A stretch of 64,000 nt of DNA from Escherichia coli (GTDB taxonomy: Bacteria > Pseudomonadota > Gammaproteobacteria > Enterobacterales > Enterobacteriaceae): NCBI RefSeq assembly GCF_965641715.1, contig NZ_OZ282453.1; one strand, written 5' to 3'. Made by a program: the position numbers and the translations under genes. Below are positions 40,533-56,293 of this stretch, piece after piece. The notes under the pieces were generated by a model, which made no database searches, had not been told where the DNA came from, and saw nothing but the letters and a program-made list of their open reading frames with translations. Numbering within the stretch: the first letter of the stretch is position 1; each line of letters opens with the position of its first letter.

Positions 40533-40626
40533 ATACTGTAGTTATCAGGCGTGGCGCTGGGTGGCTGGGTGTTAGTGGGATTATATCCGGCTGTGTATCC
40601 GGTCGGGGTGATTGGTCTGTATAGCA

Positions 40627-40647
40627 GAAAACCCGGCGCGGGGCCGG
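40627..40647 (-). terminator. rho-independent terminator of the eutA-proximal cargo gene
   Basis: cccggc gcgg gccggg hairpin with a U tract on the minus-strand transcript; a near-identical copy is at 42316-42337. Confidence 0.6.
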
Positions 40648-40655
40648 GTGAACTA

Positions 40656-41216
40656 TCACTCAGGGAACAAGTTGATTTGAAGCAAACTGCCAATGTATTT
40701 ACCAGTGCTTTTAATTTTTCGCTTTGATGGCTTACACGAATTCAGGTTGACACCAGCCTGGCTAGATATTGGCTTGTATTGCCGCTCCGCCAGTACGATC
40801 AGGTCTGCCGCGTCTTTTAGCTTTCCATCGTTAGCCAGTTCCAATGCTCGATCCGCCATTTGCCCGCATTGTTGAATCAGCTTAAGTTGCGATACCTCCA
40901 GTCGCAATTGCTGGATTCGTTCTACCACTTTCGCCCTAATGCGCTTAGTTTCACGCATTCCCATTCTTAATGCCTGGTTGCCAGTAAGTGAGTAAACCTC
41001 TTTTTCTTTCCTGAAGTTTGCGGCTTTACCGTCAGCTTGGACGCGCATTTTATGCGCTTCCAAGAATTCGCCCTCCAATTCATCCCTGATCTTCGCGTTG
41101 AATCTGTCGTTCTTGAGTTCATTTAACCCTTCCGCCTTGCGGATCTGGTTGATTAACTCCAACAATTCATCACTGCGGATACGCCACTCGCTATCAACCT
41201 GTACCAAGTCAAACAT
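40656..41216 (-). CDS. hypothetical protein (island cargo); function unknown
   Basis: ORF track 40656..41309 begins at a TTG; the internal ATG at 41216 (MFDLVQVDSEWRIR...) has a GGGAG Shine-Dalgarno 6 nt upstream, giving 186 aa; basic C-terminus; own terminator. Confidence 0.55.
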   Translation of the reverse strand: MFDLVQVDSEWRIRSDELLELINQIRKAEGLNELKNDRFNAKIRDELEGEFLEAHKMRVQADGKAANFRKEKEVYSLTGNQALRMGMRETKRIRAKVVERIQQLRLEVSQLKLIQQCGQMADRALELANDGKLKDAADLIVLAERQYKPISSQAGVNLNSCKPSKRKIKSTGKYIGSLLQINLFPE

Positions 41217-41380
41217 GTTGTTGCTCCCGTTTTGCTGCCATAGGGCAACGGCTCGCCAGCCTTTATCACCTCCTTTAGTTGTTGCGATTCTTAACTGAAT
41301 GGTTATCAAAACGCTGCGTTAATATCATTGATATGTATCAAATTTGTTTTGTGACGCGACAATGCCTTGTGAATATCAAT

Positions 41381-41404
41381 AAAAAACCCAGCGCTATGGC
41401 TGGG
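41381..41404 (-). terminator. rho-independent terminator of the HTH cargo gene
   Basis: cccagc gctatg gctggg hairpin with a U tract on the minus-strand transcript. Confidence 0.55.
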
Positions 41405-41437
41405 CTTCGTTTAATGAGATGGGATTGAAAGCGGGTT

Positions 41438-42220
41438 TTATTTATCTCCCAGATTGTATTCCCAGTTGGGAAGTAAAGTTATCAGCTTGTCACCTTTCTT
41501 GCCTTTGCCGATCTGGTTGCCGTTCTCGTCTTTCTTGTGTGTGATTTCCTGGTCAACCTTAATCAATCCTCTCTCTTTGGCTTGCTCAATCAGTCGGTAG
41601 AATGCGCCGTTACTAATCGGCTTCCGGTTACCGTCGTTATCCATCGCAGTGATTTTCTGTTGCAGTCCGGCGTTATTGCCCAGGTATTCGCCACCTAACG
41701 CCGCCAGTACCTGACACAACATGCCGACACTGTATTTTTTCGGATTTGGGTTAATCCATTCTTTAGCTCCCATCTCTTTTTTGTCGTTGGGCGCTTGTTC
41801 TGCTGCTACTGCGTTCACCTTTTCATCTCCCATCTTGTTACCGCTTGCTGTGCGCTTAATTTCTTCCAGTTCTCTCTCAAGCTCACCTATACGTAATTCA
41901 CGCTCGATAATTACCCCGCGCAGCACATCATCATCACCGTGAGGGCTTGCCTGAATCCAGTTACCATTGGCGAGCGGTAGGAGGGCATAAATTCCGAACA
42001 GGTCACAAAGCGCGGCAAGTGTATTAAAATCAGGTTCCCGGCGTCCCTCCATCCAGTGGCTAACAGCGCCTTTTGTGACTGGTTCGCCTTTCTTGCTTTT
42101 AACACCCATGCGATCCAGTGCGGCGGCTATCTCTTCGCATTTAATGCCACGACCGCCAGCATAGCCCGCCGCTTTCGCGGCCCCTTTGAGGATGTCGTGA
42201 ATTTTCATTTCGTAACTCAT
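41438..42220 (-). CDS. XRE/Cro-C1-type helix-turn-helix domain protein (island cargo)
   Basis: ORF track 41438..42235; preferred start is the second ATG (MSYEMKIHD...) with a GGGAGA Shine-Dalgarno; HTH-like segment IKCEEIAAALDRMGVKSKKGEPVTKGAVSHWMEG; coiled-coil middle; Lys/Gly-rich C-terminus. Confidence 0.6.
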   Translation of the reverse strand: MSYEMKIHDILKGAAKAAGYAGGRGIKCEEIAAALDRMGVKSKKGEPVTKGAVSHWMEGRREPDFNTLAALCDLFGIYALLPLANGNWIQASPHGDDDVLRGVIIERELRIGELERELEEIKRTASGNKMGDEKVNAVAAEQAPNDKKEMGAKEWINPNPKKYSVGMLCQVLAALGGEYLGNNAGLQQKITAMDNDGNRKPISNGAFYRLIEQAKERGLIKVDQEITHKKDENGNQIGKGKKGDKLITLLPNWEYNLGDK

Positions 42221-42226
42221 AATTTT

Positions 42227-42257
42227 ATCTCCCATCTCATGAACTATGGTGGGAGAT
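42227..42257. promoter_or_regulatory. perfect 8-bp inverted repeat (atctccca N15 tgggagat) over the start region of the HTH gene
   Basis: Arms at 42227-42234 and 42250-42257; one arm contains the Shine-Dalgarno and first ATG of the minus-strand gene; tgggagat recurs at 42958-42965. Confidence 0.45.
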
Positions 42258-42315
42258 TAACACGGCGGGCCTGTGGCGGGTAAGTGTAACGGGAGAGAAT
42301 GTTGATTCAGGTCAC

Positions 42316-42337
42316 AAAAACCCGGCGCGGGGCCGGG
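42316..42337 (-). terminator. rho-independent terminator of the 158-aa cargo gene
   Basis: cccggc gcgg(g) gccggg hairpin with a U tract on the minus-strand transcript. Confidence 0.6.
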
Positions 42338-42359
42338 CTGTGTTAGTACGTCGTTGCTC

Positions 42360-42836
42360 TTAGTTCATGAGGAGATCTTTAAATTCGACGCCGTATTCAT
42401 GGGCAATGTCGCCTCTATAGTAGATGTTATCTTTCAGGATATATCCGACGTTTCTCAGGACGTGAGAACACTCTCTTACTGCTGCCTCTTTACCCCTTAA
42501 AACATCCTCCCCGCTAACTTCTTCGCCGCTGTACTTCACTGCGATGTTGTCTGCTGCACGCTCTGCTGCTTCCAGGCAATTAATCTTCACTTTTCCCCGA
42601 TTCTCCCAGGCAAAATCGCGGCCATAAATCCCCATTGCATCAACCATCTTTTGCGCAGTAGTGCGCTCATCCACCCATTCAGTGCGTTCGAACTTCTCGC
42701 CAGCAGCTACCCTTGCCGCCAGTTGTTCGTGTTGAGTCTGTACGGCCGCAGCCTCTTCTTCCCATTTGCCTTGCTCGTTGTATACGATGAAGCCAGTGAT
42801 GACTGCAGCGATTAGTAACTTGTCCAGAAAATTCAT
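42360..42836 (-). CDS. membrane-anchored hypothetical protein (island cargo)
   Basis: 158 aa; AGGAGG Shine-Dalgarno 5 nt upstream of the ATG; single N-terminal hydrophobic helix LLIAAVITGFIVY followed by a charged soluble domain. Confidence 0.6.
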   Translation of the reverse strand: MNFLDKLLIAAVITGFIVYNEQGKWEEEAAAVQTQHEQLAARVAAGEKFERTEWVDERTTAQKMVDAMGIYGRDFAWENRGKVKINCLEAAERAADNIAVKYSGEEVSGEDVLRGKEAAVRECSHVLRNVGYILKDNIYYRGDIAHEYGVEFKDLLMN

Positions 42837-43120
42837 AGCTTCCTCCTATCTGTTCAATTACCCGGCATCTCTTGCCGTTGAACGTATTAAACAAAATGCC
42901 AGTCAGGGATAAAGCGATCTGCGTCATAAAGTCCATCCCCCATCTCATTGATATTGATGGGAGATTGTTTAATTGGTCAGAAATTAAGCGTTTATGTGCG
43001 CTGCCGGGTATCCACCTCCTATCTGAAGATGGAAAGATGGGTGATATAATGTGATGGCAATTGGTGGATTGCGTGGTTTTTACAATGATAAGGGGCTGGC
43101 GTAATGCTGGCCCCTTTGTT

Positions 43121-43162
43121 TATCCGGTATCCGGTATCCGGTATAAGCGGGCGTGTATCCGG
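43121..43162. repeat. cluster of four tatccgg motifs (three tandem 7-mers plus one)
   Basis: tatccggtatccggtatccggtataagcgggcgtgtatccgg; related copies at 40584-40602 and, inverted, at 51558-51565. Confidence 0.5.
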
Positions 43163-43356
43163 TAGCGGGGATATGGGCGCGTGTACGTGAAATCTGGCAA
43201 ATTAGCAGGGTAATTGTGAGGGAATTTTTGCGTAGGAGCGTTTGTGGCTGGTAGCTCAAAATTGAGCTTTGCTTTTCATTCAATGACTTAGGTTAATTCT
43301 AGCAAAACGCTAGGATTGAATGTCCGCCAGTCTGCTTCCCCTAGCGTGGGATTTGG

Positions 43357-45723
43357 TCAACGTCTGCGCGGCTGCAAAATTCCTCCGGGTCGTTGTGATT
43401 CACGCTGCATCAGTCGCATCGCTGTGTTTTCTATGGTCTGCTGCAGCGCTTTTGAGTCTTCCTCTGTCCAGCCGTTGTTAGCCTGGATGTTGAACGTATT
43501 GTTCATCGTGATTCCGCCACCGCCTACCAGATCGCGGCCCGGTGTAACTCGTCCACCTTCACCCGGGATCATGTACTGTTTCCCGCCAGTGGATGTAAAT
43601 AGCTCCGGTACTCCGTGCTCCCCGACCCTATAAAGATTGCCACCGTTAACAGCCCCGCCGTTGTAACGAGCGCCAGCCAGTCCAAGCGTTTTGGCGGCAG
43701 CTACGCCAGTAGTAAGCCCGGTAAGTCCAGTGGCCCCAGCGCCGCCCATCGTGGCTACGTTAGCCAGGTATGCAGGAGTGGCCCACGCCGATCCTAATGC
43801 TGTAGCCTCTGCTAGTGCTTTAGCTGTTGCGGCTGCGTTTGCGGCTTCACCAATTAGCTGCTGTTTAACCCACTCAGCACCCATCTGGACAATGCCACCG
43901 ACCACAGAAGACAGGATCGTACTGCCAACGTTGGCAAGTGACTCTTGCAGCGATTGAGTACCGTTTATCAGTCCGGTAAATGCGCTGCCAGCGCCAGACG
44001 ATAACCCATCGACCATATTCCCGATGAGGCCATTTATATCGCTTTGTTTCTTCCACTGCTGCCACTGGAGATCCAGAACCCTTTGTTCATGTGCGATCTC
44101 TTCCTGGCGCAACTGCTCTTCGGTAGCCCCAAGATCTAGAAGCATTTGCTTGCGAACAGCCCATTCATTTTGGATCTTCTGTATTGGGTCAATCTGAGCT
44201 TTCTGCTTATCCTGCTCACTGACAAGACTGTCCCATTTCGCTTTCTGCTTGCGGATGGCTTCAGCTTCATCAATTGCTGCGAGTGTACTTGCTCGCTGTT
44301 TCGCGCTGATCAACCGTTTCTGCTCAGCCGCTTCCAGGTCTTCTACTGCTTTTTTCCGTTTATTGAGCGCCGCTAGTTCGGGATCGTATTTTTCCACCAA
44401 TGAAAGGCCGCTTGCTTCCTTACGTTCGCGTTCTCTTTGTGCCTGTTTGGCTGCCTGCTTAGCGGCGTTTTCTGCTTGTTTGGCTGCTCTTTCTTTCGCC
44501 CTGGTGTTCTCTTCTTCCTTGCGCTTATTCTCTTCTAACTCCTTGTTTTGTTCGCGTAATTTAACGATTTCCTCATGATGCGCCTTTGTCAGCTGGCCTT
44601 CTTTCAGTGCCCGATCTATATCAGCGTTTGCGTTGCCTTTTAGCTGTTCCTGTTTAACTTGCAGATGTTTAATCATCATTTCGCCAGTGGCAATCGCTGC
44701 CGCAGACGCTCCAGCATTCAGAGCTTCATTTAACGCTCTCTGACGTTCTTCTGCTGTTAATGCCTCGTTGCTGTATCGAAGTAGCGCATCAACGTATTTC
44801 TCCAGTTCTGCGCGGCCTGCCGCAGTTGCTGGTTCCATTGCTTTTAGGATGCTCAGAAGGCTTTGCGCTTCATAGGAAGACGGGTTTTTGCGGAACTGCG
44901 CCATAGCGTTATAAAGCGCCATAGCTTCACCCTCTGTGATTCTGTACTTAGCTCCCAGCCCTTCAATGACCGCTGATAACTGTTTGCCAAGCGCTGCACC
45001 GAATGCGCCTTCCTTGCTTAATTTGTTGAGCACTTCACTCAGTGAATTTCCTGACACGCCCAGCGCGTCGAGTTCTCTTGCTACCGTTCCCAGGTCGCCG
45101 CCTTTCATCCATCCTGCATTAGAAAATTCAGTGATAGCCCGGCCCGCTTCCCGCGTTTCTTCCTGGAGTGTTTTTAGCGCCCGCACGGCCTGCTCTTTCA
45201 TTACGGCGGCGGCAATGGCGTTGTTCTGTGTGGCTTCGTAATATGAATCACTGAAAGCGTTAACGCCCTGGGTGGATTTGCCGATCACGGCGTCGATTGA
45301 TGCTAATGCCTCCTTCATCCTTTCAGCGCTATCCGTTGCGTCGTCCATGCTGTCCGTTAGGCTGTTGGCAATCGCCCCGCCAATAGCCATCACCGCCCCC
45401 ATGACCGCACCGCCAGTACCGAAGGCAGCGGCAAGTTGTGCACCCTGCACAGCGAACGCCTGGAGCGCATTACCGCCCATCTGCAATTGAGTGGCAAGGT
45501 CTGCGATCTGGTATGATGCGTTACGGATTGCCGGGGAAAGGTTGGTTTTGACTGCGGCAGACGTTTTGGTCATCTGCGTGTTCAGTTTTTTGACGCCACT
45601 GTCAGCGCGTTTTGCGCCGCGTTCTATACTGTCAAAAGCCTGGTCCGCTTCTTGTTGTGCTGCCAGGAGTTTACCAGTACGGGCGTCGACCTCATAGTAT
45701 ATGGTCCCAAGATTCCCACTCAT
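43357..45723 (-). CDS. phage tail tape-measure protein, lambda gpH-like
   Basis: 788 aa; N-terminal Gly/Ala-rich hydrophobic segment (GGAVMGAVMAIGGAI); long Ala/Lys/Glu/Gln-rich coiled-coil centre; C-terminal Gly-rich region with NLYR and NNTFNIQ motifs resembling the lambda H C-terminus as recalled; no Walker A motif. Confidence 0.7.
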   Translation of the reverse strand: MSGNLGTIYYEVDARTGKLLAAQQEADQAFDSIERGAKRADSGVKKLNTQMTKTSAAVKTNLSPAIRNASYQIADLATQLQMGGNALQAFAVQGAQLAAAFGTGGAVMGAVMAIGGAIANSLTDSMDDATDSAERMKEALASIDAVIGKSTQGVNAFSDSYYEATQNNAIAAAVMKEQAVRALKTLQEETREAGRAITEFSNAGWMKGGDLGTVARELDALGVSGNSLSEVLNKLSKEGAFGAALGKQLSAVIEGLGAKYRITEGEAMALYNAMAQFRKNPSSYEAQSLLSILKAMEPATAAGRAELEKYVDALLRYSNEALTAEERQRALNEALNAGASAAAIATGEMMIKHLQVKQEQLKGNANADIDRALKEGQLTKAHHEEIVKLREQNKELEENKRKEEENTRAKERAAKQAENAAKQAAKQAQRERERKEASGLSLVEKYDPELAALNKRKKAVEDLEAAEQKRLISAKQRASTLAAIDEAEAIRKQKAKWDSLVSEQDKQKAQIDPIQKIQNEWAVRKQMLLDLGATEEQLRQEEIAHEQRVLDLQWQQWKKQSDINGLIGNMVDGLSSGAGSAFTGLINGTQSLQESLANVGSTILSSVVGGIVQMGAEWVKQQLIGEAANAAATAKALAEATALGSAWATPAYLANVATMGGAGATGLTGLTTGVAAAKTLGLAGARYNGGAVNGGNLYRVGEHGVPELFTSTGGKQYMIPGEGGRVTPGRDLVGGGGITMNNTFNIQANNGWTEEDSKALQQTIENTAMRLMQRESQRPGGILQPRRR

Positions 45724-46012
45724 AATATCTTTATCCGCGTTGTGCGGACACCTCCGATTATTCTTTACTCTAATAATTTCACAATGAAACAGTTTATTGC
45801 CGCTTCAGTGGCTTCGTGTTCCGGTTTGCTTCGATCAATCACAAAAAATACAGCTTAATAGAATCAATGGCTTATAAAGTTGTATTAGCTATGTTTCTTC
45901 GTCCGTGCCACTGAAAACCCAGTTTTTCCAATGGAATCAATACTGATATGTATCCATACTGTTTTTCACATAATGTACGTTATGCGCACTACGGGAAACG
46001 TACTGAATTTAT

Positions 46013-46243
46013 TTACTGGTCGCCGTTCAGTTCATGCAGAGTCTGTTCTGGCAATGAATCCAGCCAGTTTTCTGCATCCTCCCTGTAACACTCCAGGATG
46101 CAACGGTTTGTGAAGTTGATGAAAGCGGTCAGTGATTCTGCTTCGTCGTTCCTGTGCGTTCTCCTGGCGTGCTTGCGTAGTCGTTTCGCGTCTGCCAGTT
46201 GGTCATTGAGTATCTTCAGTCTGTCGGCAATATCATCGTTCAT
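46013..46243 (-). CDS. hypothetical small protein
   Basis: 76 aa; GGGAGA Shine-Dalgarno 6 nt upstream of the ATG. Confidence 0.45.
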   Translation of the reverse strand: MNDDIADRLKILNDQLADAKRLRKHARRTHRNDEAESLTAFINFTNRCILECYREDAENWLDSLPEQTLHELNGDQ

Positions 46244-46430
46244 GTCGTCTCTCCCTCGCGCGCGCGTCGTACTTGTCCGAAAATTACCCCCATAAAAGCG
46301 CCCCTCATATAGTGCAAAATCCCGGCTGACGCGGATCTCAGTGGGTTTTAGCAGTGAAAACTGACATCAAAAACGGCTCGCTAAGGTCCGCTAAGTATCC
46401 GCTATCGTTCGCTAACCCCCCGCTAACCTA

Positions 46431-46796
46431 TTAGATATCGCATCCAACGCTATTGAGCTGGCTATGTATATCGGCGCGAATTAACTTCAGGCGTTTACAA
46501 AATTCGCGTTCTTCCGAATTAAGCTCGCGGCCACCTTGTTTCGAGGCAATGAGCTTGTTGATGGTGGAAAGCGAATATTCACTCCATATACGAAGCATTT
46601 GTCGCTTCATTGGTTGCTCGCTCAATGGTGAGTTTTTCAGGTCTGACACGCGCTCTGCGACGGTTCTTGCGATGCCTTGTACCACTCGTAGTGCCAACAT
46701 GATGATTTTCTCCGGACTTGTGCTAATATAGTTCCCGAACATTGTTTCGAGACTGCTTATCCTGTTTGTCTTGTCCGATTTGTTCATTGGTCGCAT
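46431..46796 (-). CDS. hypothetical protein
   Basis: 121-aa ORF in the same orientation as, and closely spaced with, the upstream 180-aa ORF. Confidence 0.45.
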   Translation of the reverse strand: MRPMNKSDKTNRISSLETMFGNYISTSPEKIIMLALRVVQGIARTVAERVSDLKNSPLSEQPMKRQMLRIWSEYSLSTINKLIASKQGGRELNSEEREFCKRLKLIRADIHSQLNSVGCDI

Positions 46797-46838
46797 TGTT
46801 AAGTCAGCCGGGGTAATTCCCGGCTTTCTTTTATCCGA

Positions 46839-47381
46839 TCAGTACCGAATCCCTATCGCATTGAATACGCGTTTCCGTTGCTCAGCTTCAGGATCGGCGG
46901 CCATTTCTGGTTCTGGCTCCGGCATAGACGGGGCGGCATCAAAATGCTCAATTTCACGACCGAAATACGAGTTCAGGTCAATACCTGCCGAACTATCCAC
47001 TCCATCAAAATAGCGACGCTGTTCCTCGGTGAGACAGCTACCCAGACGTTCCTCAACCTGCGCCATAAACTCAGCATCCGGTGAGAAGTACTCATCCGGA
47101 GTCGGAGCACCGCTCTGTTTGTGCATCTCCATTTTCTCTGCGTTCGTTTTCAGCCCGGCAATGCGTTTCTCCAGTCCGGCGGCTTTAATAGCGTCAGCAA
47201 CGATTTGTGGGATCTGCGGTTTAATTATTTCGATAACTTCATTGCTGATTAATTTAAACTGGGCCATACGGATCGCTTTAATCTGCTTATTTAACAGTGC
47301 GCGTTCCCCTTCGTTGGCGGTTTTATCACGCTGTGCTACCAGTTCATCGCCTTTGTTTGTCAGTACATCAAATGCGTCCAT
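46839..47381 (-). CDS. hypothetical protein
   Basis: 180 aa; strong GGAGGAGG Shine-Dalgarno 7 nt upstream; acidic Pro/Glu-rich C-terminal tail; 17 nt downstream of the 108-aa ORF. Confidence 0.55.
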   Translation of the reverse strand: MDAFDVLTNKGDELVAQRDKTANEGERALLNKQIKAIRMAQFKLISNEVIEIIKPQIPQIVADAIKAAGLEKRIAGLKTNAEKMEMHKQSGAPTPDEYFSPDAEFMAQVEERLGSCLTEEQRRYFDGVDSSAGIDLNSYFGREIEHFDAAPSMPEPEPEMAADPEAEQRKRVFNAIGIRY

Positions 47382-47398
47382 TGTCTTTCCTCCTCCGA

Positions 47399-47725
47399 TT
47401 ATTTAAAAGTGCTTATTGACACGCCGAAACGACGACTTAATTCAAAAAGGAGTCGCGCCTTTGCAGTGCCTTCCATGTCTTCCGGCATTTCAGACTGAAG
47501 TTTATCAGCTACTTCATCAACAAGTGGCCGAACCGTTTCCACGAACTTGTCCGCAATATAATCAGCAGAACGCATCACTTTTTCCTGGAATTCCTCACGG
47601 CGTACCTGGGCGGCTGATTTAGGGGCTGTCGTGCGCTGAAAATAACTGTCTAATGAATGCATGGCATCTGCTCCTTTTACTTTGATTGCTGTTATTTCTT
47701 TAATTGTGTTTGCTTTGATTTTCAT
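47399..47725 (-). CDS. hypothetical protein
   Basis: 108-aa ORF starting 76 nt downstream of the AlpA-like gene. Confidence 0.5.
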   Translation of the reverse strand: MKIKANTIKEITAIKVKGADAMHSLDSYFQRTTAPKSAAQVRREEFQEKVMRSADYIADKFVETVRPLVDEVADKLQSEMPEDMEGTAKARLLFELSRRFGVSISTFK

Positions 47726-47801
47726 GCTGCCTATTCCTTCAGAAATTGCGGTAGTTTGCTTTTTAAATCAATAAGTTATTTGATAATCTCAGTAGCTGTT
47801 T

Positions 47802-47993
47802 TCATTGGTGGCGAGCGCCTTTGTTTTTATAGAATTCCAAAATCTCAGATCGGATAAACTTAATTCTTGAGCCAATCGGACTGACCGGGACGGGCCAGCC
47901 TTTAATCTTGTTCATCCACCGGAATATTGTCCGACGGGTAACGCCGAATAAAGCTGCTACCTCGTTAACCGTCATTAATTCGCTATCATTCAT
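47802..47993 (-). CDS. excisionase / AlpA-family DNA-binding protein
   Basis: 63 aa; HTH MTVNEVAALFGVTRRTIFRWM typical of excisionase-family domains; GAGGTGA Shine-Dalgarno. Confidence 0.7.
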   Translation of the reverse strand: MNDSELMTVNEVAALFGVTRRTIFRWMNKIKGWPVPVSPIGSRIKFIRSEILEFYKNKGARHQ

Positions 47994-48003
47994 GTTCTCA
48001 CCT

Positions 48004-48046
48004 CAAAAAGTAGCGGTGAGGAAAATATGGAGAAAACCCTCACCGC
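48004..48046 (-). promoter_or_regulatory. terminator-like hairpin in the leader of the AlpA-like gene (candidate attenuator)
   Basis: Minus-strand RNA reads GCGGUGAGG, 16-nt loop, CCUCACCGC, UACUUUUU, then GAGGUGAGAAC AUG; the 3' arm could alternatively pair with the Shine-Dalgarno. Confidence 0.45.
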
Positions 48047-48220
48047 GCCCTGAATGAAATTAAAGACCAACATTACTGTTGATACTTATTATTATATTCC
48101 TCCTGTCCCTGTTTCACATCTTTTACCATATAGTGAAAGGGGATATTCTGTAATGTTTACAAAACTTTTAATTAGCAAAAAATAATTGCGCATCTCACGT
48201 AATGCAGGGATAATATTACT

Positions 48221-48306
48221 CAAGGGCTGGTTGCCCTTACTCAAAATGTGATCTATAACTACAACGATCTATTTCACTTCCCCGCTTTCTCCGGCGGGAT
48301 TTTTTT
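48221..48306 (+). ncRNA. candidate small RNA (~86 nt), divergent from the AlpA-like operon
   Basis: Promoter-like TTGCGC (48186-48191), 17-bp spacer, GATAAT (48209-48214); internal hairpin agggctggttgccct; terminator cccgc tttctccg gcggg plus T7 at 48281-48306; no ORF. Confidence 0.4.
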
Positions 48307-49115
48307 GCCTGCAATCTGGCACCATTGCGCACATTAAAATTAGATGCCATTTAAAAGCGATATAACGCGTTCTGCCGGGCTTAATTTTGGCTATCCACTT
48401 GGAAGGGTAAGCCTGTTTTGATTCGTCTGGCGTGGAATGGTGCGGCGGTAATATCAGATCTCAGCGTTCTGCGTGGTGGGATGAAATAGCCTGGCAGGAT
48501 TTGCGTGTGGTTTGCTCTCCCAAAAAATGGGGTAATGGCGCTGGCTGGATGGCAGGACTCCGCGCTGATTACTGGATGGCTGAAAATTTAATGAAATCGC
48601 ATCAATTTTAATGCGTCTAAATCGCTCTGTGGCGACGTGAAGTTTTCAGGTAAGCAAGTGTAGCTGTGTGGTGTGTTCATCGCGTTACTGGCACCATTCC
48701 GTTCGAATTTGGCGCTATCAGGATGGTTTGCGGTGGTCGGCGGCGGGGATAAACTTGCTTGAGTGGTCACCTCAGCCTGCTGTGCGTCGTGTGATGGTAC
48801 TGTCTGCACCTGGCTATACGCTGCTTTGCTGCTGTTTCCTGTCTGGTCTGTATACGCGATAAAACCCATCGGCTTTACAGTGAGTGAGTTTTTTGCGCTT
48901 TGCTTTCCATTCGGTTTGCTTACTGCTGCTGTGTGTCTGTGCGGTAGCTCAGAAAGCTGTCGATGATAACCATCACTGCCAGACCGTCTTTTGAGCTGGC
49001 GATTGCTCGAAGTCTTCCGAAGGTCCGCTGGGCTTGTTGCTTGTTTGTGTTCTTTTAAAATGCGCGCCTCTTACTTTCTCTTAAAAAGAAAAAAGGAATA
49101 TACAGATCTCATACT

Positions 49116-49275
49116 ATGTGTGTCCCAAATGTCACACGTCATGGCCTGACCTGTATCCCAAATGTCACACGTCACCCTCTGACCTGTATCCCAAATGTCA
49201 CACGTACCTGTGTCCCAAATGTCACACGTCTATTGTTAATTAATTGTTGACCTGTGTCTCAAATGTCACACGTCT
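49116..49275. repeat. iteron array: five direct repeats of about 22 bp
   Basis: Copies start at 49116, 49149, 49182, 49206, 49250 (spacings 33, 33, 24, 44 bp); core cccaaatgtcacacgt; AT-rich ttgttaattaattgttga between copies 4 and 5. Confidence 0.7.
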
Positions 49276-49292
49276 GTTGATGGTTTAAGTAA

Positions 49293-49319
49293 TAAAAAGG
49301 GCCACCATTTTAGGTGACC
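49293..49319 (-). terminator. rho-independent terminator of the wHTH gene
   Basis: gggccacc atttta ggtgaccc hairpin (one G-U pair) with a U tract on the minus-strand transcript. Confidence 0.5.
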
Positions 49320-49338
49320 CATTGATGCGTTTTAGTCG

Positions 49339-50103
49339 TTATCTTGCGTTCTCGACCTGAAAAAGCATTCTGTATTTTCTTGCGTGCTGACCAATAACAT
49401 ATTCCCCGTATGGCTCAATGAGTCCTAACTCAACCAGGATTTTCATCTGGCGAATTACGGTGCGGCGATTCATGCCCCATTCATCAGCTATTTTTGCCTG
49501 GCAAACTTCAGATACATAAGATCCATCATTCTGCTTTCTTGCTGCTGATGCAATGCTGGATAATACGCTCCAGGCTGTAGCTTTAGCTTTATTCTCGCAA
49601 CCACTTCTGACAAATGCCTTACGTGCCGCACCCAAACAGACATAACTGCAATAAATTCCTTTTTCTTCCGTTTGGTATTGTGTCTCTTTATCCTGCATGG
49701 CTTCCGGTTCTTCCGGCGCTTCCTGCTGTGGTGCTGTCTGCGAAGTTTTAGCGGCCATACTGCGTAGCTCGTTCACGATATCAGTAGCTGATTTCTTCTC
49801 GCTTTTAGTTTCCTGCGTGACTGATAAATACTCACCTTGTAACGCCAGGAAGTCAGCGCGGGCGTTTGCCTGGCTTTGTTCTGGTGATTCAGGTTCTGCA
49901 TCGGCAGGTGATGAAATCGGTGATACACGCGCCCAGCCTGTTTTGGCGTTGCATTCCCAGCGATAACCATTAAAGCGGATATCATTCAGGCCATCATCAA
50001 TGGCGCTCCGTACTTCTTCCGGGATCGCGTCGATTTTCTGAAGGCTGTGTTTACCGAGTGATTCGCCTTGCCGTGGGGCGTAGGCGGTTGGTAAAATATT
50101 CAT
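49339..50103 (-). CDS. winged-helix DNA-binding protein, putative replication initiator or repressor
   Basis: 254 aa; AAGGAGA Shine-Dalgarno; acidic low-complexity middle; C-terminal HTH-like EVCQAKIADEWGMNRRTVIRQMKILVELGLIE; iteron array immediately downstream. Confidence 0.5.
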   Translation of the reverse strand: MNILPTAYAPRQGESLGKHSLQKIDAIPEEVRSAIDDGLNDIRFNGYRWECNAKTGWARVSPISSPADAEPESPEQSQANARADFLALQGEYLSVTQETKSEKKSATDIVNELRSMAAKTSQTAPQQEAPEEPEAMQDKETQYQTEEKGIYCSYVCLGAARKAFVRSGCENKAKATAWSVLSSIASAARKQNDGSYVSEVCQAKIADEWGMNRRTVIRQMKILVELGLIEPYGEYVIGQHARKYRMLFQVENAR

Positions 50104-50315
50104 GTGGGATTTCTCCTTTTTACTTGTTTCCCATATCGCCCGGATTGGTTAGCGGCCTTCCGGGCTTTTTGTTGCGTTGATCCTATTTTCGATCCCCGGA
50201 TTTTTTATTACAAACTTGGCTTAATCATTGATTTTATTGGTATAGCTGTATAAAAGGATAACAGGATAAAAGGGTGATAGATTGTGTAACCTGTTAACCT
50301 TTTATACCAGTAAGG

Positions 50316-50342
50316 CGAAAGAAAAGCCGGACGAATCCGGCC
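50316..50342 (-). terminator. rho-independent terminator after the integrase gene
   Basis: gccgga cgaa tccggc hairpin with a U-rich tract, 8 nt past the integrase stop. Confidence 0.5.
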
Positions 50343-50349
50343 TTATAGT

Positions 50350-51555
50350 TCACGGCTCCAGCGGATTACCGCCACCAGCCAATATCTGGTCGATGGCGTC
50401 GCTGTAGTCCTGCATCATGGCCCGCCGTTGCTTCAGATAGGCCGCCTGGTTATAAACGCCGCGCACACCTTTCGGAACGTGGGCCAGTTGGATTTCGATC
50501 CAGTCTGGTGAGTATCTGCCGTACTCGTTAAGTGCGGTTGAAAAGGTGGTTCGCCAGCCGTGACCAGTGGCTATCGACTTGTATCCGATACGCTCCAGGG
50601 CTTTAAGGATGGCACTGGCTGAAAGTGGCTTATCCATGAATCGACCAGGGAACACAAAAGCACTGTATCCGCTGCGGGTAAACTGGTCCTGTAATAGCTC
50701 GACCGCCTGCCGGGATAGCGGGACCACATGCGGGCGGCGGGCCTTCATGACTTCAGCGGGTAGGGTGATGGTTGCCGATTCCAGATCTACCCACTCCCAG
50801 CGCATTAAACGCAGTTCTGCGGTCCTTAGGGCGCTTAATATAAGCAAACGTATTGCCGTCTGAATCTGAACGCTCCCGGCTCTCTCAAGGGCTTTGTAGA
50901 AGGCCGGGATTTCGTTAATTTGTATCCATGCGTTATGGCCTGGGCGTCGGGCTTTCAATGCCGTGTCCAGATCTGCAACCGGATTTCGGTTAACCAGTTC
51001 AGTGATAACGGCAAATTTGAAGATTTCCCCTATACGCTGCCGTAATTTTCGGGCCTGTTCCGGCGCGGTGCGCTCTTTCTTCTGAAGCAATGCCAGCACG
51101 TCACGGGCCGTTATATCGACAATCGACCGCTTGCCAAGTACCGGATAAACATCTTTCTCCAGTGCCGATCTAACTTGTTTCGTGTAAGACTCAGACCAAC
51201 CGCTCACTCTGGTAGCAAACCAGTCTTCCGCTACCGTCTTAAAACTTGCCGCCATGTTGAGCGCATCAATGGCTTTCTCCTTGCGCGCTTCTTCCATTGG
51301 GTCAATTCCCTGGGCGATGAGTAAACGGCTCTCTGTGGCGCGTTTACGTGCTTCCTTCAAGGTAATCAGCGGATATACCCCAATAGCCTGTAACCGCTCT
51401 TTCTTGTCTATCCAGTACCGGAATCGCCAGTATTTGCTGCCATTGGGATGTACCAGCAAGAACAGGCCAGGTGTCTGTGAATCGGTGAGTTTGTAGGGCT
51501 TGTCCTTCGGCTGGGCGGCCTCTATGCCCTTTGCTGTCAGTGGTGTCTTGCTCAA
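50350..51555 (-). CDS. P4-type tyrosine integrase (site-specific recombinase), intZ-like
   Basis: 401 aa; N-terminal arm-binding domain (PYKLTDSQTPGLFLLVHPNGSKYWRFRY); C-terminal catalytic region with the HGWRTTFSTALNE and RGVYNQAAY motifs. Confidence 0.85.
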   Translation of the reverse strand: MSKTPLTAKGIEAAQPKDKPYKLTDSQTPGLFLLVHPNGSKYWRFRYWIDKKERLQAIGVYPLITLKEARKRATESRLLIAQGIDPMEEARKEKAIDALNMAASFKTVAEDWFATRVSGWSESYTKQVRSALEKDVYPVLGKRSIVDITARDVLALLQKKERTAPEQARKLRQRIGEIFKFAVITELVNRNPVADLDTALKARRPGHNAWIQINEIPAFYKALERAGSVQIQTAIRLLILSALRTAELRLMRWEWVDLESATITLPAEVMKARRPHVVPLSRQAVELLQDQFTRSGYSAFVFPGRFMDKPLSASAILKALERIGYKSIATGHGWRTTFSTALNEYGRYSPDWIEIQLAHVPKGVRGVYNQAAYLKQRRAMMQDYSDAIDQILAGGGNPLEP

Positions 51556-51724
51556 AACCGGATACCTCGATCTAACGACTCGATAACCCCGCTCATGTAT
51601 CCGTCGCGTTCGGTTGCGTTCGGCAGGATAAGTAACGGGCGTATTAAGTGGAACACCTTACAGGACAAGGGATAACGATGAAATAGAATTGTTCGAATGC
51701 TGTGAAAAATGTTACTCATCACTT

Positions 51725-51732
51725 CTTCCTGA
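51725..51732. repeat. right junction direct repeat (att core candidate), immediately 5' of the eutB ribosome-binding site
   Basis: cttcctga, identical to 40525-40532; followed by gggaacgactt ATG (eutB). Confidence 0.5.
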
Positions 51733-51743
51733 GGGAACGACTT

Positions 51744-53105
51744 ATGAAACTAAAGACCACATTGTTCGGCAATGTATATCAGTTTAAGGATGTAAAAGAG
51801 GTGCTGGCTAAAGCCAACGAACTGCGTTCGGGGGATGTGCTGGCGGGCGTCGCAGCGGCAAGCTCACAGGAGCGCGTGGCGGCAAAGCAGGTGTTGTCGG
51901 AAATGACCGTAGCGGACATCCGCAATAATCCGGTGATTGCCTATGAAGATGACTGCGTGACGCGGCTGATTCAGGACGATGTTAACGAAACGGCCTACAA
52001 CCAGATTAAAAACTGGAGCATCAGCGAACTGCGTGAGTATGTGCTGAGCGATGAAACCAGCGTGGACGACATTGCCTTTACCCGCAAAGGGCTGACCTCG
52101 GAAGTGGTCGCGGCGGTAGCGAAGATTTGCTCCAACGCGGACCTGATCTACGGCGCGAAGAAAATGCCGGTAATCAAAAAGGCCAATACCACCATCGGTA
52201 TTCCGGGCACCTTTAGCGCCCGTTTGCAGCCAAATGACACCCGTGACGACGTGCAAAGTATCGCCGCGCAAATCTACGAAGGGCTTTCCTTCGGGGTGGG
52301 CGATGCGGTGATCGGCGTCAACCCGGTAACTGACGATGTGGAAAACTTAAGCCGCGTGCTGGATACCATTTATGGCGTGATCGACAAATTCAACATCCCA
52401 ACTCAGGGCTGCGTACTGGCGCACGTCACCACCCAGATCGAAGCGATTCGTCGCGGCGCGCCTGGCGGACTGATTTTCCAGAGTATCTGTGGCAGCGAAA
52501 AAGGGCTGAAAGAGTTTGGCGTGGAACTGGCGATGCTCGACGAAGCGCGCGCAGTGGGCGCAGAGTTCAACCGTATCGCCGGGGAAAACTGCCTCTACTT
52601 CGAAACCGGACAAGGCTCTGCGCTATCCGCTGGCGCTAACTTCGGCGCTGACCAGGTGACGATGGAAGCACGTAACTATGGGCTGGCGCGTCATTACGAT
52701 CCGTTTATCGTCAACACCGTGGTCGGTTTTATTGGGCCGGAGTATCTCTACAACGACCGCCAGATTATCCGTGCTGGCTTAGAAGATCACTTTATGGGCA
52801 AGCTGAGCGGCATCTCTATGGGCTGTGACTGCTGTTACACCAACCACGCTGACGCTGACCAGAACCTCAACGAAAACCTGATGATCCTGCTCGCCACCGC
52901 AGGCTGCAACTACATCATGGGGATGCCGTTGGGCGATGACATCATGCTCAACTACCAGACCACCGCCTTCCACGACACTGCCACTGTGCGTCAGTTACTC
53001 AACCTGCGCCCGTCACCGGAGTTTGAACGCTGGCTGGAAAGCATGGGCATTATGGCAAACGGTCGCCTGACCAAACGGGCGGGCGATCCGTCACTGTTCT
53101 TCTGA
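51744..53105 (+). CDS. eutB: ethanolamine ammonia-lyase large subunit
   Basis: 453 aa from internal Met MKLKTTLFGNVYQFKDVKEVLAKAN... Confidence 0.9.
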   Translation: MKLKTTLFGNVYQFKDVKEVLAKANELRSGDVLAGVAAASSQERVAAKQVLSEMTVADIRNNPVIAYEDDCVTRLIQDDVNETAYNQIKNWSISELREYVLSDETSVDDIAFTRKGLTSEVVAAVAKICSNADLIYGAKKMPVIKKANTTIGIPGTFSARLQPNDTRDDVQSIAAQIYEGLSFGVGDAVIGVNPVTDDVENLSRVLDTIYGVIDKFNIPTQGCVLAHVTTQIEAIRRGAPGGLIFQSICGSEKGLKEFGVELAMLDEARAVGAEFNRIAGENCLYFETGQGSALSAGANFGADQVTMEARNYGLARHYDPFIVNTVVGFIGPEYLYNDRQIIRAGLEDHFMGKLSGISMGCDCCYTNHADADQNLNENLMILLATAGCNYIMGMPLGDDIMLNYQTTAFHDTATVRQLLNLRPSPEFERWLESMGIMANGRLTKRAGDPSLFF

Positions 53106-53125
53106 TGACGCGGAGATAACACATC

Positions 53126-54013
53126 ATGGATCAAAAACAGATTGAAGAAATTGTACGCAGCGTGATGGCGTCAATGGGACAAGTGGCCCCCGCGCCGTCA
53201 GAAGCAAAGTGCGCCACCACCAACTGTGCGGCACCGGTGACCTCGGAAAGCTGCGCGCTGGATTTAGGTTCTGCGGAAGCAAAAGCGTGGATTGGTGTTG
53301 AAAACCCACATCGTGCGGATGTGTTAACAGAACTGCGTCGCAGCACCGTGGCCCGCGTTTGTACCGGTCGTGCCGGTCCGCGTCCGCGTACCCAGGCGCT
53401 GCTGCGTTTCCTGGCCGATCACTCTCGTTCGAAAGATACCGTACTTAAAGAAGTGCCGGAAGAGTGGGTGAAAGCGCAGGGCTTGCTGGAAGTACGCTCT
53501 GAAATTAGCGACAAAAATCTCTACCTGACTCGCCCGGATATGGGCCGCCGCCTGTGTGCAGAAGCTGTTGAAGCGCTGAAAGCGCAGTGTGTTGCCAATC
53601 CGGACGTGCAGGTCGTTATTTCTGATGGCCTGTCAACTGATGCCATCACTGTGAACTACGAAGAGATCCTGCCACCGCTGATGGCGGGCCTGAAACAGGC
53701 CGGGCTGAAAGTCGGTACACCATTCTTTGTTCGTTATGGTCGCGTGAAGATTGAAGATCAGATCGGTGAGATCCTCGGCGCGAAAGTGGTGATCCTGCTG
53801 GTGGGGGAACGTCCGGGGTTAGGGCAGTCAGAAAGCCTCTCCTGCTACGCCGTTTACTCGCCGCGTATGGCGACCACCGTTGAGGCCGATCGCACCTGCA
53901 TCTCTAACATTCACCAGGGCGGCACGCCGCCGGTTGAAGCCGCAGCCGTCATTGTGGATTTGGCGAAACGTATGCTGGAGCAGAAAGCATCCGGCATCAA
54001 CATGACCCGATAA
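53126..54013 (+). CDS. eutC: ethanolamine ammonia-lyase small subunit
   Basis: 295 aa [19 protein letters not shown]... Confidence 0.9.
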
Positions 54014-54022
54014 GGAGGCATC

Positions 54023-54682
54023 ATGCCAGCTTTAGATTTGATTCGACCGTCGGTAACCGCCATGCGGGTGATTGCCTCCGTTAACGCCGAATTTGCGCGT
54101 GAACTGAAATTGCCGCCGCATATTCGTAGCCTCGGGCTGATTTCTGCTGATTCCGATGACGTCACCTACATTGCCGCTGATGAAGCGACCAAGCAGGCGA
54201 TGGTGGAAGTTGTGTATGGCCGCTCGCTGTATGCGGGCGCTGCACACGGCCCGTCACCGACTGCCGGTGAAGTGCTGATTATGCTTGGTGGGCCAAACCC
54301 GGCGGAAGTGCGTGCAGGTCTGGATGCAATGGTTGCGCATATTGAAAATGGCGCTGCTTTCCAGTGGGCTAATGATGCGCAAGATACGGCATTCCTGGCA
54401 CATGTAGTTTCGCGTACCGGTTCTTATCTCTCATCAACCGCCGGGATCACGCTTGGCGATCCGATGGCGTATCTGGTGGCACCGCCGCTGGAAGCGACCT
54501 ACGGCATTGATGCAGCGTTGAAATCTGCCGACGTACAGCTGGTGACCTATGTCCCGCCACCGTCTGAAACTAACTACTCGGCAGCATTTTTAACCGGTAG
54601 CCAGGCAGCGTGTAAAGCGGCCTGTAACGCCTTTACCGATGCAGTGCTGGAAATCGCGCGTAATCCAATCCAGCGTGCGTAA
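54023..54682 (+). CDS. eutL: microcompartment shell protein EutL (tandem BMC)
   Basis: 219 aa [24 protein letters not shown]... Confidence 0.85.
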
Positions 54683-54694
54683 TGGAGGTTGCCG

Positions 54695-55195
54695 ATGATC
54701 AATGCACTGGGATTGCTGGAAGTGGACGGCATGGTCGCTGCGATAGATGCAGCGGATGCCATGCTCAAAGCAGCTAACGTTCGTCTGCTCAGTCACGAAG
54801 TGCTTGACCCTGGTCGCTTAACGCTGGTGGTGGAAGGCGATCTGGCGGCGTGTCGTGCTGCGCTGGACGCAGGTTGTGCTGCCGCGATGCGTACCGGGCG
54901 TGTCATCAGCCGTAAGGAGATCGGTCGGCCAGACGATGACACCCAGTGGCTGGTTACTGGCTTTAACCGCCAGCCGAAGCAACCCGTAAAGGAACCCGAC
55001 GCGCCAGTTATCGTCGTGGAATCTGCTGACGAGTTGTTGGCGCTGTTAACATCAGTACGTCAGGGAATGACGGCAGGAGAAGTGGCTGCCCACTTTGGCT
55101 GGCCGCTGGAAAAAGCCAGAAATGCGCTCGAACAGCTCTTTTCTGCCGGGACGTTACGTAAACGCAGTAGTCGTTACCGTCTCAAGCCCCATTAA
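54695..55195 (+). CDS. eutK: microcompartment shell protein EutK
   Basis: 166 aa from ATG at 54695 with GGAGG Shine-Dalgarno; BMC-like N-terminus MINALGLLEVDGMVAAIDAADAM. Confidence 0.85.
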   Translation: MINALGLLEVDGMVAAIDAADAMLKAANVRLLSHEVLDPGRLTLVVEGDLAACRAALDAGCAAAMRTGRVISRKEIGRPDDDTQWLVTGFNRQPKQPVKEPDAPVIVVESADELLALLTSVRQGMTAGEVAAHFGWPLEKARNALEQLFSAGTLRKRSSRYRLKPH

Positions 55196-55240
55196 CCTGT
55201 CGGAGGTGCCGGGTGTCCTACAACACCCGGCATTAACATC

Positions 55241-56293
55241 ATGAAAAAGACCCGTACAGCCAATTTGCACCATCTTTATCATGAACCCTTACCCGAAAAC
55301 CTGAAGCTCACGCCGAAGGTCGAAGTGGATAATGTTCATCAACGACAGACAACGGATGTCTATGAACATGCTTTGACAATTACCGCCTGGCAGCAGATTT
55401 ACGATCAGCTGCATCCGGGCAAGTTTCATGGTGAATTTACGGAAATTCTACTCGATGATATTCAGGTTTTTCGTGAATACACCGGTCTGGCGCTGCGTCA
55501 GTCGTGCCTGGTCTGGCCGAACTCGTTCTGGTTTGGCATTCCGGCGACGCGCGGTGAGCAGGGATTTATCGGTTCGCAATGTCTGGGAAGCGCAGAAATT
55601 GCGACGCGCCCGGGTGGAACCGAGTTTGAATTAAGTACGCCGGACGATTACACGATCCTGGGCGTAGTGCTTTCTGAAGATGTCATCACTCGTCAGGCTA
55701 ACTTTTTGCATAATCCGGATCGGGTATTACATATGCTGCGTAGCCAGTCGGCGCTGGAAGTGAAAGAGCAGCATAAAGCCGCTCTGTGGGGCTTTGTCCA
55801 ACAGGCGCTGGCGACATTTTGCGAGAACCCGGAAAATCTTCATCAGCCTGCTGTGCGTAAAGTGCTGGGGGATAATTTGCTCATGGCGATGGGGGCGATG
55901 CTGGAAGAAGCGCAGCCAATGGTGACGGCGGAAAGCATCAGTCATCAGAGTTACCGTCGATTGCTTTCCCGCGCCCGTGAATATGTGCTGGAAAACATGT
56001 CCGAACCAGTGACGGTGCTGGAGTTGTGCAATCAATTGCACGTCAGCCGCCGCACGCTACAAAACGCATTTCACGCCATTTTGGGCATTGGTCCGAACGC
56101 GTGGCTGAAACGTATTCGCCTGAACGCCGTGCGCCGCGAATTGATAAGTCCGTGGTCACAAAGCACAACGGTAAAAGACGCCGCCATGCAGTGGGGATTC
56201 TGGCATCTTGGGCAATTTGCCACGGATTATCAGCAACTGTTTGCCGAGAAGCCGTCACTGACGCTGCATCAGCGGATGCGGGAGTGGGGGTGA
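55241..56293 (+). CDS. eutR: AraC-family transcriptional activator of the eut operon
   Basis: 350 aa with C-terminal AraC-type HTH. Confidence 0.85.

Follow-up and report, generated by a model that had tools for sequence, protein, structure and literature searches.

Does the gap upstream of the alpA-like gene in an Escherichia coli genomic island encode a small regulatory RNA, and which genes might such an RNA control? The question arises from a preliminary description of a 64,000-nt stretch of E. coli DNA (hereafter the window), where a short interval on the plus strand, bounded by a promoter and a terminator, was proposed to be a stand-alone sRNA gene divergent from alpA, with an immunity or regulatory role for the island. 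The predicted sRNA is about 83–88 nt in length and occupies positions 48221..48306 of the plus strand; transcription would start at 48218-48222 and end within the U tract of the terminator.

The island between eutA and eutB

In the window, eutA extends to 40532 and eutB begins at 51702, with an 11-kb island (40540-51690) in between, at the site held in K-12 by the cryptic prophage CPZ-55 (intZ). Every gene of the island is on the minus strand. These include intZ (50350-51555, with a TTG start at 51555), a gene for a 254-aa helix-turn-helix (HTH) protein that weakly resembles replication initiators (49339-50103), the alpA-like gene itself (47802..47993 in the ORF list), which encodes a 63-aa protein of the excisionase/HTH family (phrog_66, 1.7e-9; TIGR01764 excise domain), and a 788-aa tape-measure gene (43357-45723; phrog_1538, 8e-112), together with several small unknown ORFs. 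A gene-free stretch of 1.35 kb separates the 254-aa HTH gene from alpA, and it is in this gap, on the plus strand and back-to-back with the alpA promoter, that the sRNA candidate is found. The preliminary description had looked to P4-family satellites for an analogy. This link was not borne out, as the island is not P4-like: family scans returned only the tape-measure protein, the AlpA/excisionase-type HTH protein and the weak replication-initiator match.

Alongside its integrase and alpA genes, the 11-kb island carries a complete 788-aa tape-measure gene, and capsid genes are absent. Related islands carry HNH, TerS-like or YafO toxin-antitoxin modules in place of the tape-measure gene. The islands are mosaic, with several AlpA types and differing neighbour genes, and the sRNA candidate accompanies alpA in all of them. 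The eutA/eutB islands form an unusual, highly mosaic and satellite-like family. No match to this family was found in IMG/VR or in phage records, and an IMG/VR search with a conserved 180-aa island protein returned no relatives.

The gene-free stretch and its borders hold several other features. Five 22-nt iterons (TGTRTCCCAAATGTCACACGTC) at 49119-49285 adjoin an A/T-rich stretch and the 254-aa HTH gene, and this cluster is probably the island origin; the CPZ-55 prophage of K-12 has another set of four iterons beside yffL. Downstream of the sRNA terminator, a block of about 100 nt (48410-48515) is strongly conserved across several divergent island variants. It is non-coding, since it contains indels of 1-2 nt among the variants, it has no covariation support as an RNA and no match in phage records, and our guess is that it serves as a packaging or replication site. 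Closer to the terminator, at 48337-48387 on the minus strand, all that is left of a 151-aa gene is its last 15-17 codons. Two related loci (L005 and L008) have the intact gene, which is in convergent orientation to the sRNA and ends about 35 nt past the sRNA terminator, and the remnant in the window marks a deletion or recombination boundary within the gene-free stretch.

On the other side of the gap, the minus-strand alpA leader forms a GC-rich hairpin of 9-10 bp (GCGGUGAGG...CCUCACCGC, 48013-48046), followed by CUACUUUUU directly before the alpA Shine-Dalgarno (SD) sequence, the whole feature spanning 48005-48046. A hairpin and U-run occur at this position in every island variant, with differing stem sequences. 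The arrangement looks like a leader attenuator and would fit AlpA-type antitermination or helper-dependent read-through. It could also be that the 3′ arm of the hairpin, CCUCACC, pairs with the SD GAGGUGAG.

As for the distribution of the sRNA itself, the 421-nt region around it has matches in 189 of 5,426 complete E. coli genomes (~3.5%), all of them chromosomal and with identities of 72-99.5%. A carrier strain, USDA-ARS-USMARC-49610 (NZ_CP104123.1), has 99.8% identity to the window across 47800-49340. A pattern scan of metagenomes uncovered further sRNA variants in gut samples, and the variants sit in the same eutA/eutB island. Elsewhere the searches were negative: exact-pattern scans with two patterns against one genome per bacterial species gave no match, an exact-pattern scan of IMG/VR gave no match to the sRNA element, and neither 48000-48420 nor 48300-49340 had a BLAST match in phage records. 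The sRNA core is absent from the CPZ-55 prophage of K-12, and the alpA gene of the K-12 CP4-57 prophage is separated from yfjH by a 44-nt gap, with no space for an analogous RNA. The sRNA element thus seems to be limited to a subset of E. coli. Known RNA families offered no counterpart either. Rfam gave no match at E <= 1 across 40000-56000, and the sole match under permissive filters in 48150-48560 was spurious (E = 1.3, to a mammalian lncRNA on the opposite strand). A full-text literature search for the core sequence found no paper, and searches of the CPZ-55 literature found nothing relevant.

A predicted transcription unit divergent from alpA

The signals that had first drawn attention to this interval are in place. 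A σ70-type promoter can be read in the plus-strand sequence at 48186..48214, with the -35 hexamer TTGCGC (48186-48191), a 17-nt spacer and the -10 hexamer GATAAT (48209-48214), and with an A/T-rich stretch upstream. A consensus scan missed this promoter because its -35 hexamer agrees with TTGACA at only 3/6 positions. At the other end of the unit, a terminator scan called an intrinsic terminator at 48281..48306, consisting of a stem (48281-48298; 6 pairs, 5 of them GC), a single A and a U7 tract (48300-48306), and preceded by the U-rich sequence CUAUUUCACUU. Between the two lie a 5′ hairpin at 48222..48238, with AAGGGC/GCCCUU arms and a 5-nt loop, and a single-stranded core at 48240..48268 (CUCAAAAUGUGAUCU-AUAACUACAACGAU), which corresponds to nearly invariant alignment columns and is regarded as a candidate seed. 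The preliminary description was also right that the interval is free of ORFs on its own strand: it contains no plus-strand ORF of at least 30 aa, and the only ORFs that overlap it are on the minus strand (37 aa and 50 aa).

Folding of the 86-nt RNA, which the preliminary description had proposed as a check, gave -23.4 kcal/mol (z = -3.3), a stability reached by 1/200 shuffled sequences, and the partition function left the core mostly unpaired. Terminator-like sites are not enriched in the region, where six occur against 4.2 +/- 2.1 in shuffled sequences, and the core is present once in the 64-kb window. Taken by itself, then, the sequence of the window is weak to modest evidence for an sRNA gene.

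Some smaller features of the interval may be recorded here. The sequence GCCTGCAAT (48307-48315), directly 3′ of the U tract, is invariant in all variants even though it lies outside the predicted RNA. The invariant core includes an AUG with an immediate UGA (48246-48251), a start-stop pair that has no SD before it and is probably incidental, and a GATC Dam site (48250-48253). An exact repeat, TTACTCAA, flanks the 5′ hairpin (48216-48223 and 48237-48244) in window-type variants only.

A much stronger case emerges from comparison. Eighteen distinct variants, drawn from gut metagenomes as well as E. coli genomes, were compared. Wherever the promoter region is retained, the TTG of the -35 hexamer, the spacing (17 nt, or 18 nt in L009) and the -10 hexamer GATAAT are kept, and the sequence of the spacer varies. 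The 5′ hairpin is found in every variant with a differing sequence, as in GAGGAU/AUCCUC, GUAAGG/CCUUAC and AAGGAUU/AAUCCUU, and three of its six pairs have changed on both sides. In the terminator, three variants carry a compensatory change from CCCGC/GCGGG to CCAGC/GCUGG, the U tract is 7-10 nt long in all, and the stem is preceded by either CUAUUUCACUU or GUCUCUAUUU. Between these two hairpins, some 40 nt are nearly invariant (alignments A1 and A2) and mostly unpaired, and all variants fold in the same way, with the 5′ hairpin and the terminator on either side of an open core.

These regularities were put into numbers with a covariance model, which was built from the variants and to which the variants were then aligned. 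The model matches the window at 48222-48307 with 96 bits. Standard pairs fill 91% of the pair cells, a share that falls to 35-51% once the 3′ partners are shifted by 1-3 columns, and the covariation score of 0.184 compares with a shuffle mean of 0.103 and is reached by 0/500 shuffles; since the alignment was made to fit the structure, and its sequences are related, these figures are supportive and do not amount to a probability. Changes on both sides were counted in four pairs (14 cells), a count that does not represent independent events, all variants being related copies of an E. coli island.

The comparison also speaks to what the interval is not. Indels of 2 and 4 nt among the variants, and the lack of any ORF conserved on either strand, exclude a coding function; one genome has an annotated minus-strand ORF of 89 aa here, which is disrupted in the window and missing in most variants. 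A longer structured RNA covering 48221-48530 was rejected at z = -1.5. The sequence AAATGTGATCT, which equals a CRP half-site, was likewise dismissed as part of a CRP site, as a second half-site was absent by inspection and the spacing is disrupted in many variants by an insertion of 4 nt.

The best reading of the interval, and a well-backed one, is therefore that a non-coding unit of some 85 nt would be transcribed here on its own, divergently from alpA, much as the preliminary description had proposed. It is the comparison, with its conserved promoter, covarying hairpins and invariant core, that lifts the case above chance, and not the sequence of the window. The layout of the predicted gene, with its own promoter, a Rho-independent terminator with a long U tail, and a U-rich stretch before the stem, matches the architecture of Hfq-type trans-acting sRNAs.

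Candidate targets and a proposed role

If the unit does produce a trans-acting RNA, the related islands provide the clearest indication of its target. In every sampled locus with an HNH-type gene directly after alpA, the sequence (A)UCACAU(U)UUGAGG is found at the SD of the HNH gene, and this is the complement of CCUCAAAAUGUGAU, the first block of the invariant core. Indeed, the HNH 5′ UTR sequence AUCACAUUUUGAGG is the exact complement of that block. In three loci (L011, L012, which is from strain ET881, NZ_CP100890.1, and L031), a perfect match of 14 nt lies at the HNH SD, and no other stretch of the locus complements the sRNA over a greater length; in the other HNH loci, 12-13 nt are complementary once a bulge of 1-2 nt is allowed. 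The scan located the HNH start region in 11 loci, and among all start regions this one came first in six of them and fourth or better in every one. Cofolding of the sRNA with the HNH start region gave a ddG of -16 to -18.5 kcal/mol with the SD covered, and the covariance model, too, gives a weak match on the antisense strand of the HNH start region. Type-B alpA start regions pair modestly with the second core block (ddG -8 to -9). Strict covariation between the seed and the HNH start region is not seen, and several variants pair through 1-2-nt bulges. Overall, the complementarity between the core and the HNH SD points to a trans-acting anti-SD RNA, and a regulatory role toward island genes appears plausible from these sequence relationships.

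The HNH gene is absent from the island in the window, and the 15-mer target GATCACATTTTGAGG has no further site in the 64 kb at up to 3 mismatches. Two candidate sites remain. One is the alpA SD region (UUUUGAGGUGAG, 47996..48010 on the minus strand; direct repeat D2), a weak candidate that came from duplex prediction with the sRNA segment CUUACUCAAAA. Here, 11 bp would form with one bulge and one G-U pair, including seven contiguous base pairs (CUCAAAA/UUUUGAG); the site ranks 53/263 among translation start regions, with a cofold ddG of -4.9 kcal/mol. The other is the intZ translation start region (51546..51590, minus strand), a low-confidence candidate in which CUUACUCAAAA and UUUUGAGCAAG are complementary at 10/11 positions. 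It ranks 2/263 among start regions at -20.9 kcal/mol, and its cofold ddG of -16.5 is gained partly by opening the sRNA terminator; the second block of this pairing is not conserved in close variants. We also rejected an origin of the sRNA from the antisense of the intZ leader: a local alignment scored 17, and background scores were 13.9 +/- 2.2 and went up to 24. The copy in the window may thus be a relic or orphan regulator, or it may act on weaker sites such as the alpA SD and the intZ start, or on an unseen helper-phage or host target. The immunity or regulatory role first suggested for it holds up in part: the core does complement the SD of the gene after alpA in related islands, but the best target, HNH, is absent here and pairing with the alpA leader is weak. 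As for an HNH gene of a helper as a further target, the only phage matches to the HNH protein of the islands were in Caulobacter phages (30% identity), and none was a coliphage homologue.

A mechanism can be proposed on this basis. A moderate σ70 promoter, back-to-back with that of alpA, would drive the sRNA, and its unstructured core of about 40 nt would act as an anti-SD seed. By pairing with translation start regions of the alpA operon, the seed would block ribosome loading and so keep the late or mobilisation genes of the island silent until strong alpA transcription is induced. The clearest target would be the HNH nuclease gene that follows alpA directly in related islands, a gene that the island in the window has lost. 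We put the probability at roughly 0.5 that this is a real, independently transcribed sRNA gene of about 85 nt in the control region of a satellite-like island, with its core serving as an anti-SD seed on alpA-operon starts. A bolder version would make the RNA a negative regulator, or immunity factor, of a family of AlpA-controlled Gram-negative satellites, in which a constitutive anti-SD sRNA silences the alpA operon (alpA, the HNH nuclease and possibly int) until helper-induced transcription titrates it out; this is tentative and, as it stands, unlikely.

The same pairing could conceivably belong to an antitoxin. The sRNA would then be part of a type I-like pair and neutralise a potentially toxic HNH nuclease, as RalA does for RalR, and the copy in the window would be an orphan antitoxin. 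The complementarity does hit the SD of the nuclease gene and nothing else strongly, window-type islands retain the sRNA without the nuclease, and RalA/RalR offers the precedent of a trans-encoded sRNA with 16 nt complementary to the mRNA of a DNase toxin (PMC4041452). However, the HNH gene lies inside the alpA operon beside packaging-type genes (TerS-like in some variants), so that a packaging role fits it better, and the core is invariant also in islands without HNH, which suggests that some other function is being maintained. The linked and complementary toxin gene of a type I system is missing in the window, which has neither an HNH gene nor a pairing site, and both are present in related islands. 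An antitoxin role is thus decidedly unlikely. It would be compatible with a real RNA, and so would a cis-acting role as a barrier, where transcription of the sRNA, or the antisense RNA itself, would halt minus-strand read-through from rep (or from the 151-aa gene in relatives) into alpA by polymerase collision or antisense pairing. In L005 and L008, the sRNA gene does converge on the upstream minus-strand gene; the hairpin read on the minus strand has no U tract after it and would terminate poorly in that direction; and of all pairings found, the perfect antisense duplex is the strongest, if trivially so. Against this, the rep-like gene upstream in the window has a terminator-like site of its own (49320-49299), and a barrier has no need of an invariant core, which together make such a role very improbable.

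Two other explanations would deprive the short RNA of a function of its own. It might be the terminated leader of an antitermination unit like the PR′-tR′ (6S) unit of lambda, in which case the RNA would be a by-product, and AlpA or a helper-phage antiterminator loaded at the promoter would allow plus-strand read-through toward the conserved block, the iterons and the antisense of rep and int. AlpA of Pseudomonas aeruginosa is in fact a processive antiterminator that binds in the spacer separating the -35 from the -10 of target promoters with intrinsic terminators after them (PMC7969949), a terminator-like hairpin is present in the alpA leader here, and the conserved non-coding block at 48410-48515 lies downstream. 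Yet the window has no plus-strand gene downstream, and in L005 and L008 the DNA past the terminator is the 3′ end of the convergent 151-aa gene, which abuts the terminator and leaves no plus-strand operon for read-through. By inspection, moreover, the spacers of the sRNA and alpA promoters share no motif, the spacer does not track the AlpA type, and both the invariant core and its complementarity to the HNH SD would go unexplained; we regard such a leader as improbable. The least probable reading is that the conservation acts at the level of DNA, with the core and its repeat at the HNH start being binding or cleavage sites for a protein (a regulator, an HNH/terminase complex or a recombinase) and the promoter- and terminator-like features being incidental. 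It would account for GATCACATTTTGAGG as a direct repeat about 420 bp apart that flanks alpA in HNH-type islands, for the occurrence of ATGTGA also in the -35 region of the alpA promoter, and for the invariant GCCTGCAAT after the U tract. A DNA site would not, however, be expected to show compensatory changes in two hairpins or a conserved -10 and spacing, and one copy of the repeat lies exactly over an SD and the other in an open RNA region, as RNA-RNA pairing predicts.

The reading as an anti-SD sRNA would have consequences beyond this locus. Work on the phage-inducible chromosomal islands (PICIs) of E. coli found AlpA as an activator and no repressor (PMC6092414). The predicted sRNA, back-to-back with alpA and with a seed that matches the ribosome-binding site of the next gene in relatives, offers a testable candidate for the negative control of AlpA satellites, and an RNA off-switch, if true, would fill the repressor gap for at least the eutA/eutB island family. 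It would also add to E. coli an unannotated sRNA family that is present in ~3.5% of complete genomes and that, being absent from K-12, is absent from most sRNA catalogues as well. The practical value of the copy in the window is smaller, since its best target has been lost and it may be a relic.

Comparison with known systems

Small RNAs that control the operons of mobile elements have well-known precedents, of which c4 of phages P1 and P7 comes closest in logic. Like c4, an immunity RNA that blocks the ribosome-binding site of icd/ant, the predicted sRNA would be an element-encoded trans RNA of about 80 nt, with a single-stranded stretch complementary to the SD of a lytic or mobilisation gene, and would silence its element by an anti-SD route. 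The c4 RNA is processed from the same transcript that carries its targets. The sRNA described here, in contrast, would be transcribed from a promoter of its own and from the opposite strand to the alpA operon; it has no Rfam C4 match, and a matching target is missing in the window. The analogy drawn in the preliminary description was to P4-family satellites, and the immunity factor of P4, the CI RNA, is a small RNA with which a satellite controls its own early operon. P4 CI is cut from the PLE leader and acts on the same strand, where pairing of seqA with seqC leads to premature termination. The present island is not of the P4 kind, and neither sequence nor structure matches. Membership in either group, P4 CI or P1 c4, was rejected in view of the conserved promoter of its own, the strand opposite the candidate targets and the lack of an Rfam model match.

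That satellites do use stand-alone sRNAs is shown by SviR of the Vibrio cholerae PLE, a trans-acting satellite sRNA that regulates genes of both the satellite and its helper phage (bioRxiv 10.1101/2022.04.08.487710); its host, satellite family and sequence are unrelated to those considered here. The lambda 6S unit (PR′-tR′) and the AlpA units share with the present locus a promoter and a strong terminator within ~100-200 nt, beside an AlpA-type gene (PMC7969949), but no operon follows on the same strand here, and the invariant core complements the SD of another gene. Finally, RalA/RalR of the cryptic Rac prophage pairs a trans sRNA with a nuclease mRNA over 16 nt (PMC4041452), compared with 14 nt against the HNH mRNA in related islands. 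The predicted sRNA differs in that it complements the SD, that the nuclease gene is missing in the window and that HNH is only a putative toxin. By analogy, then, the predicted sRNA resembles P1 c4 in its logic and RalA/RalR in its arrangement.
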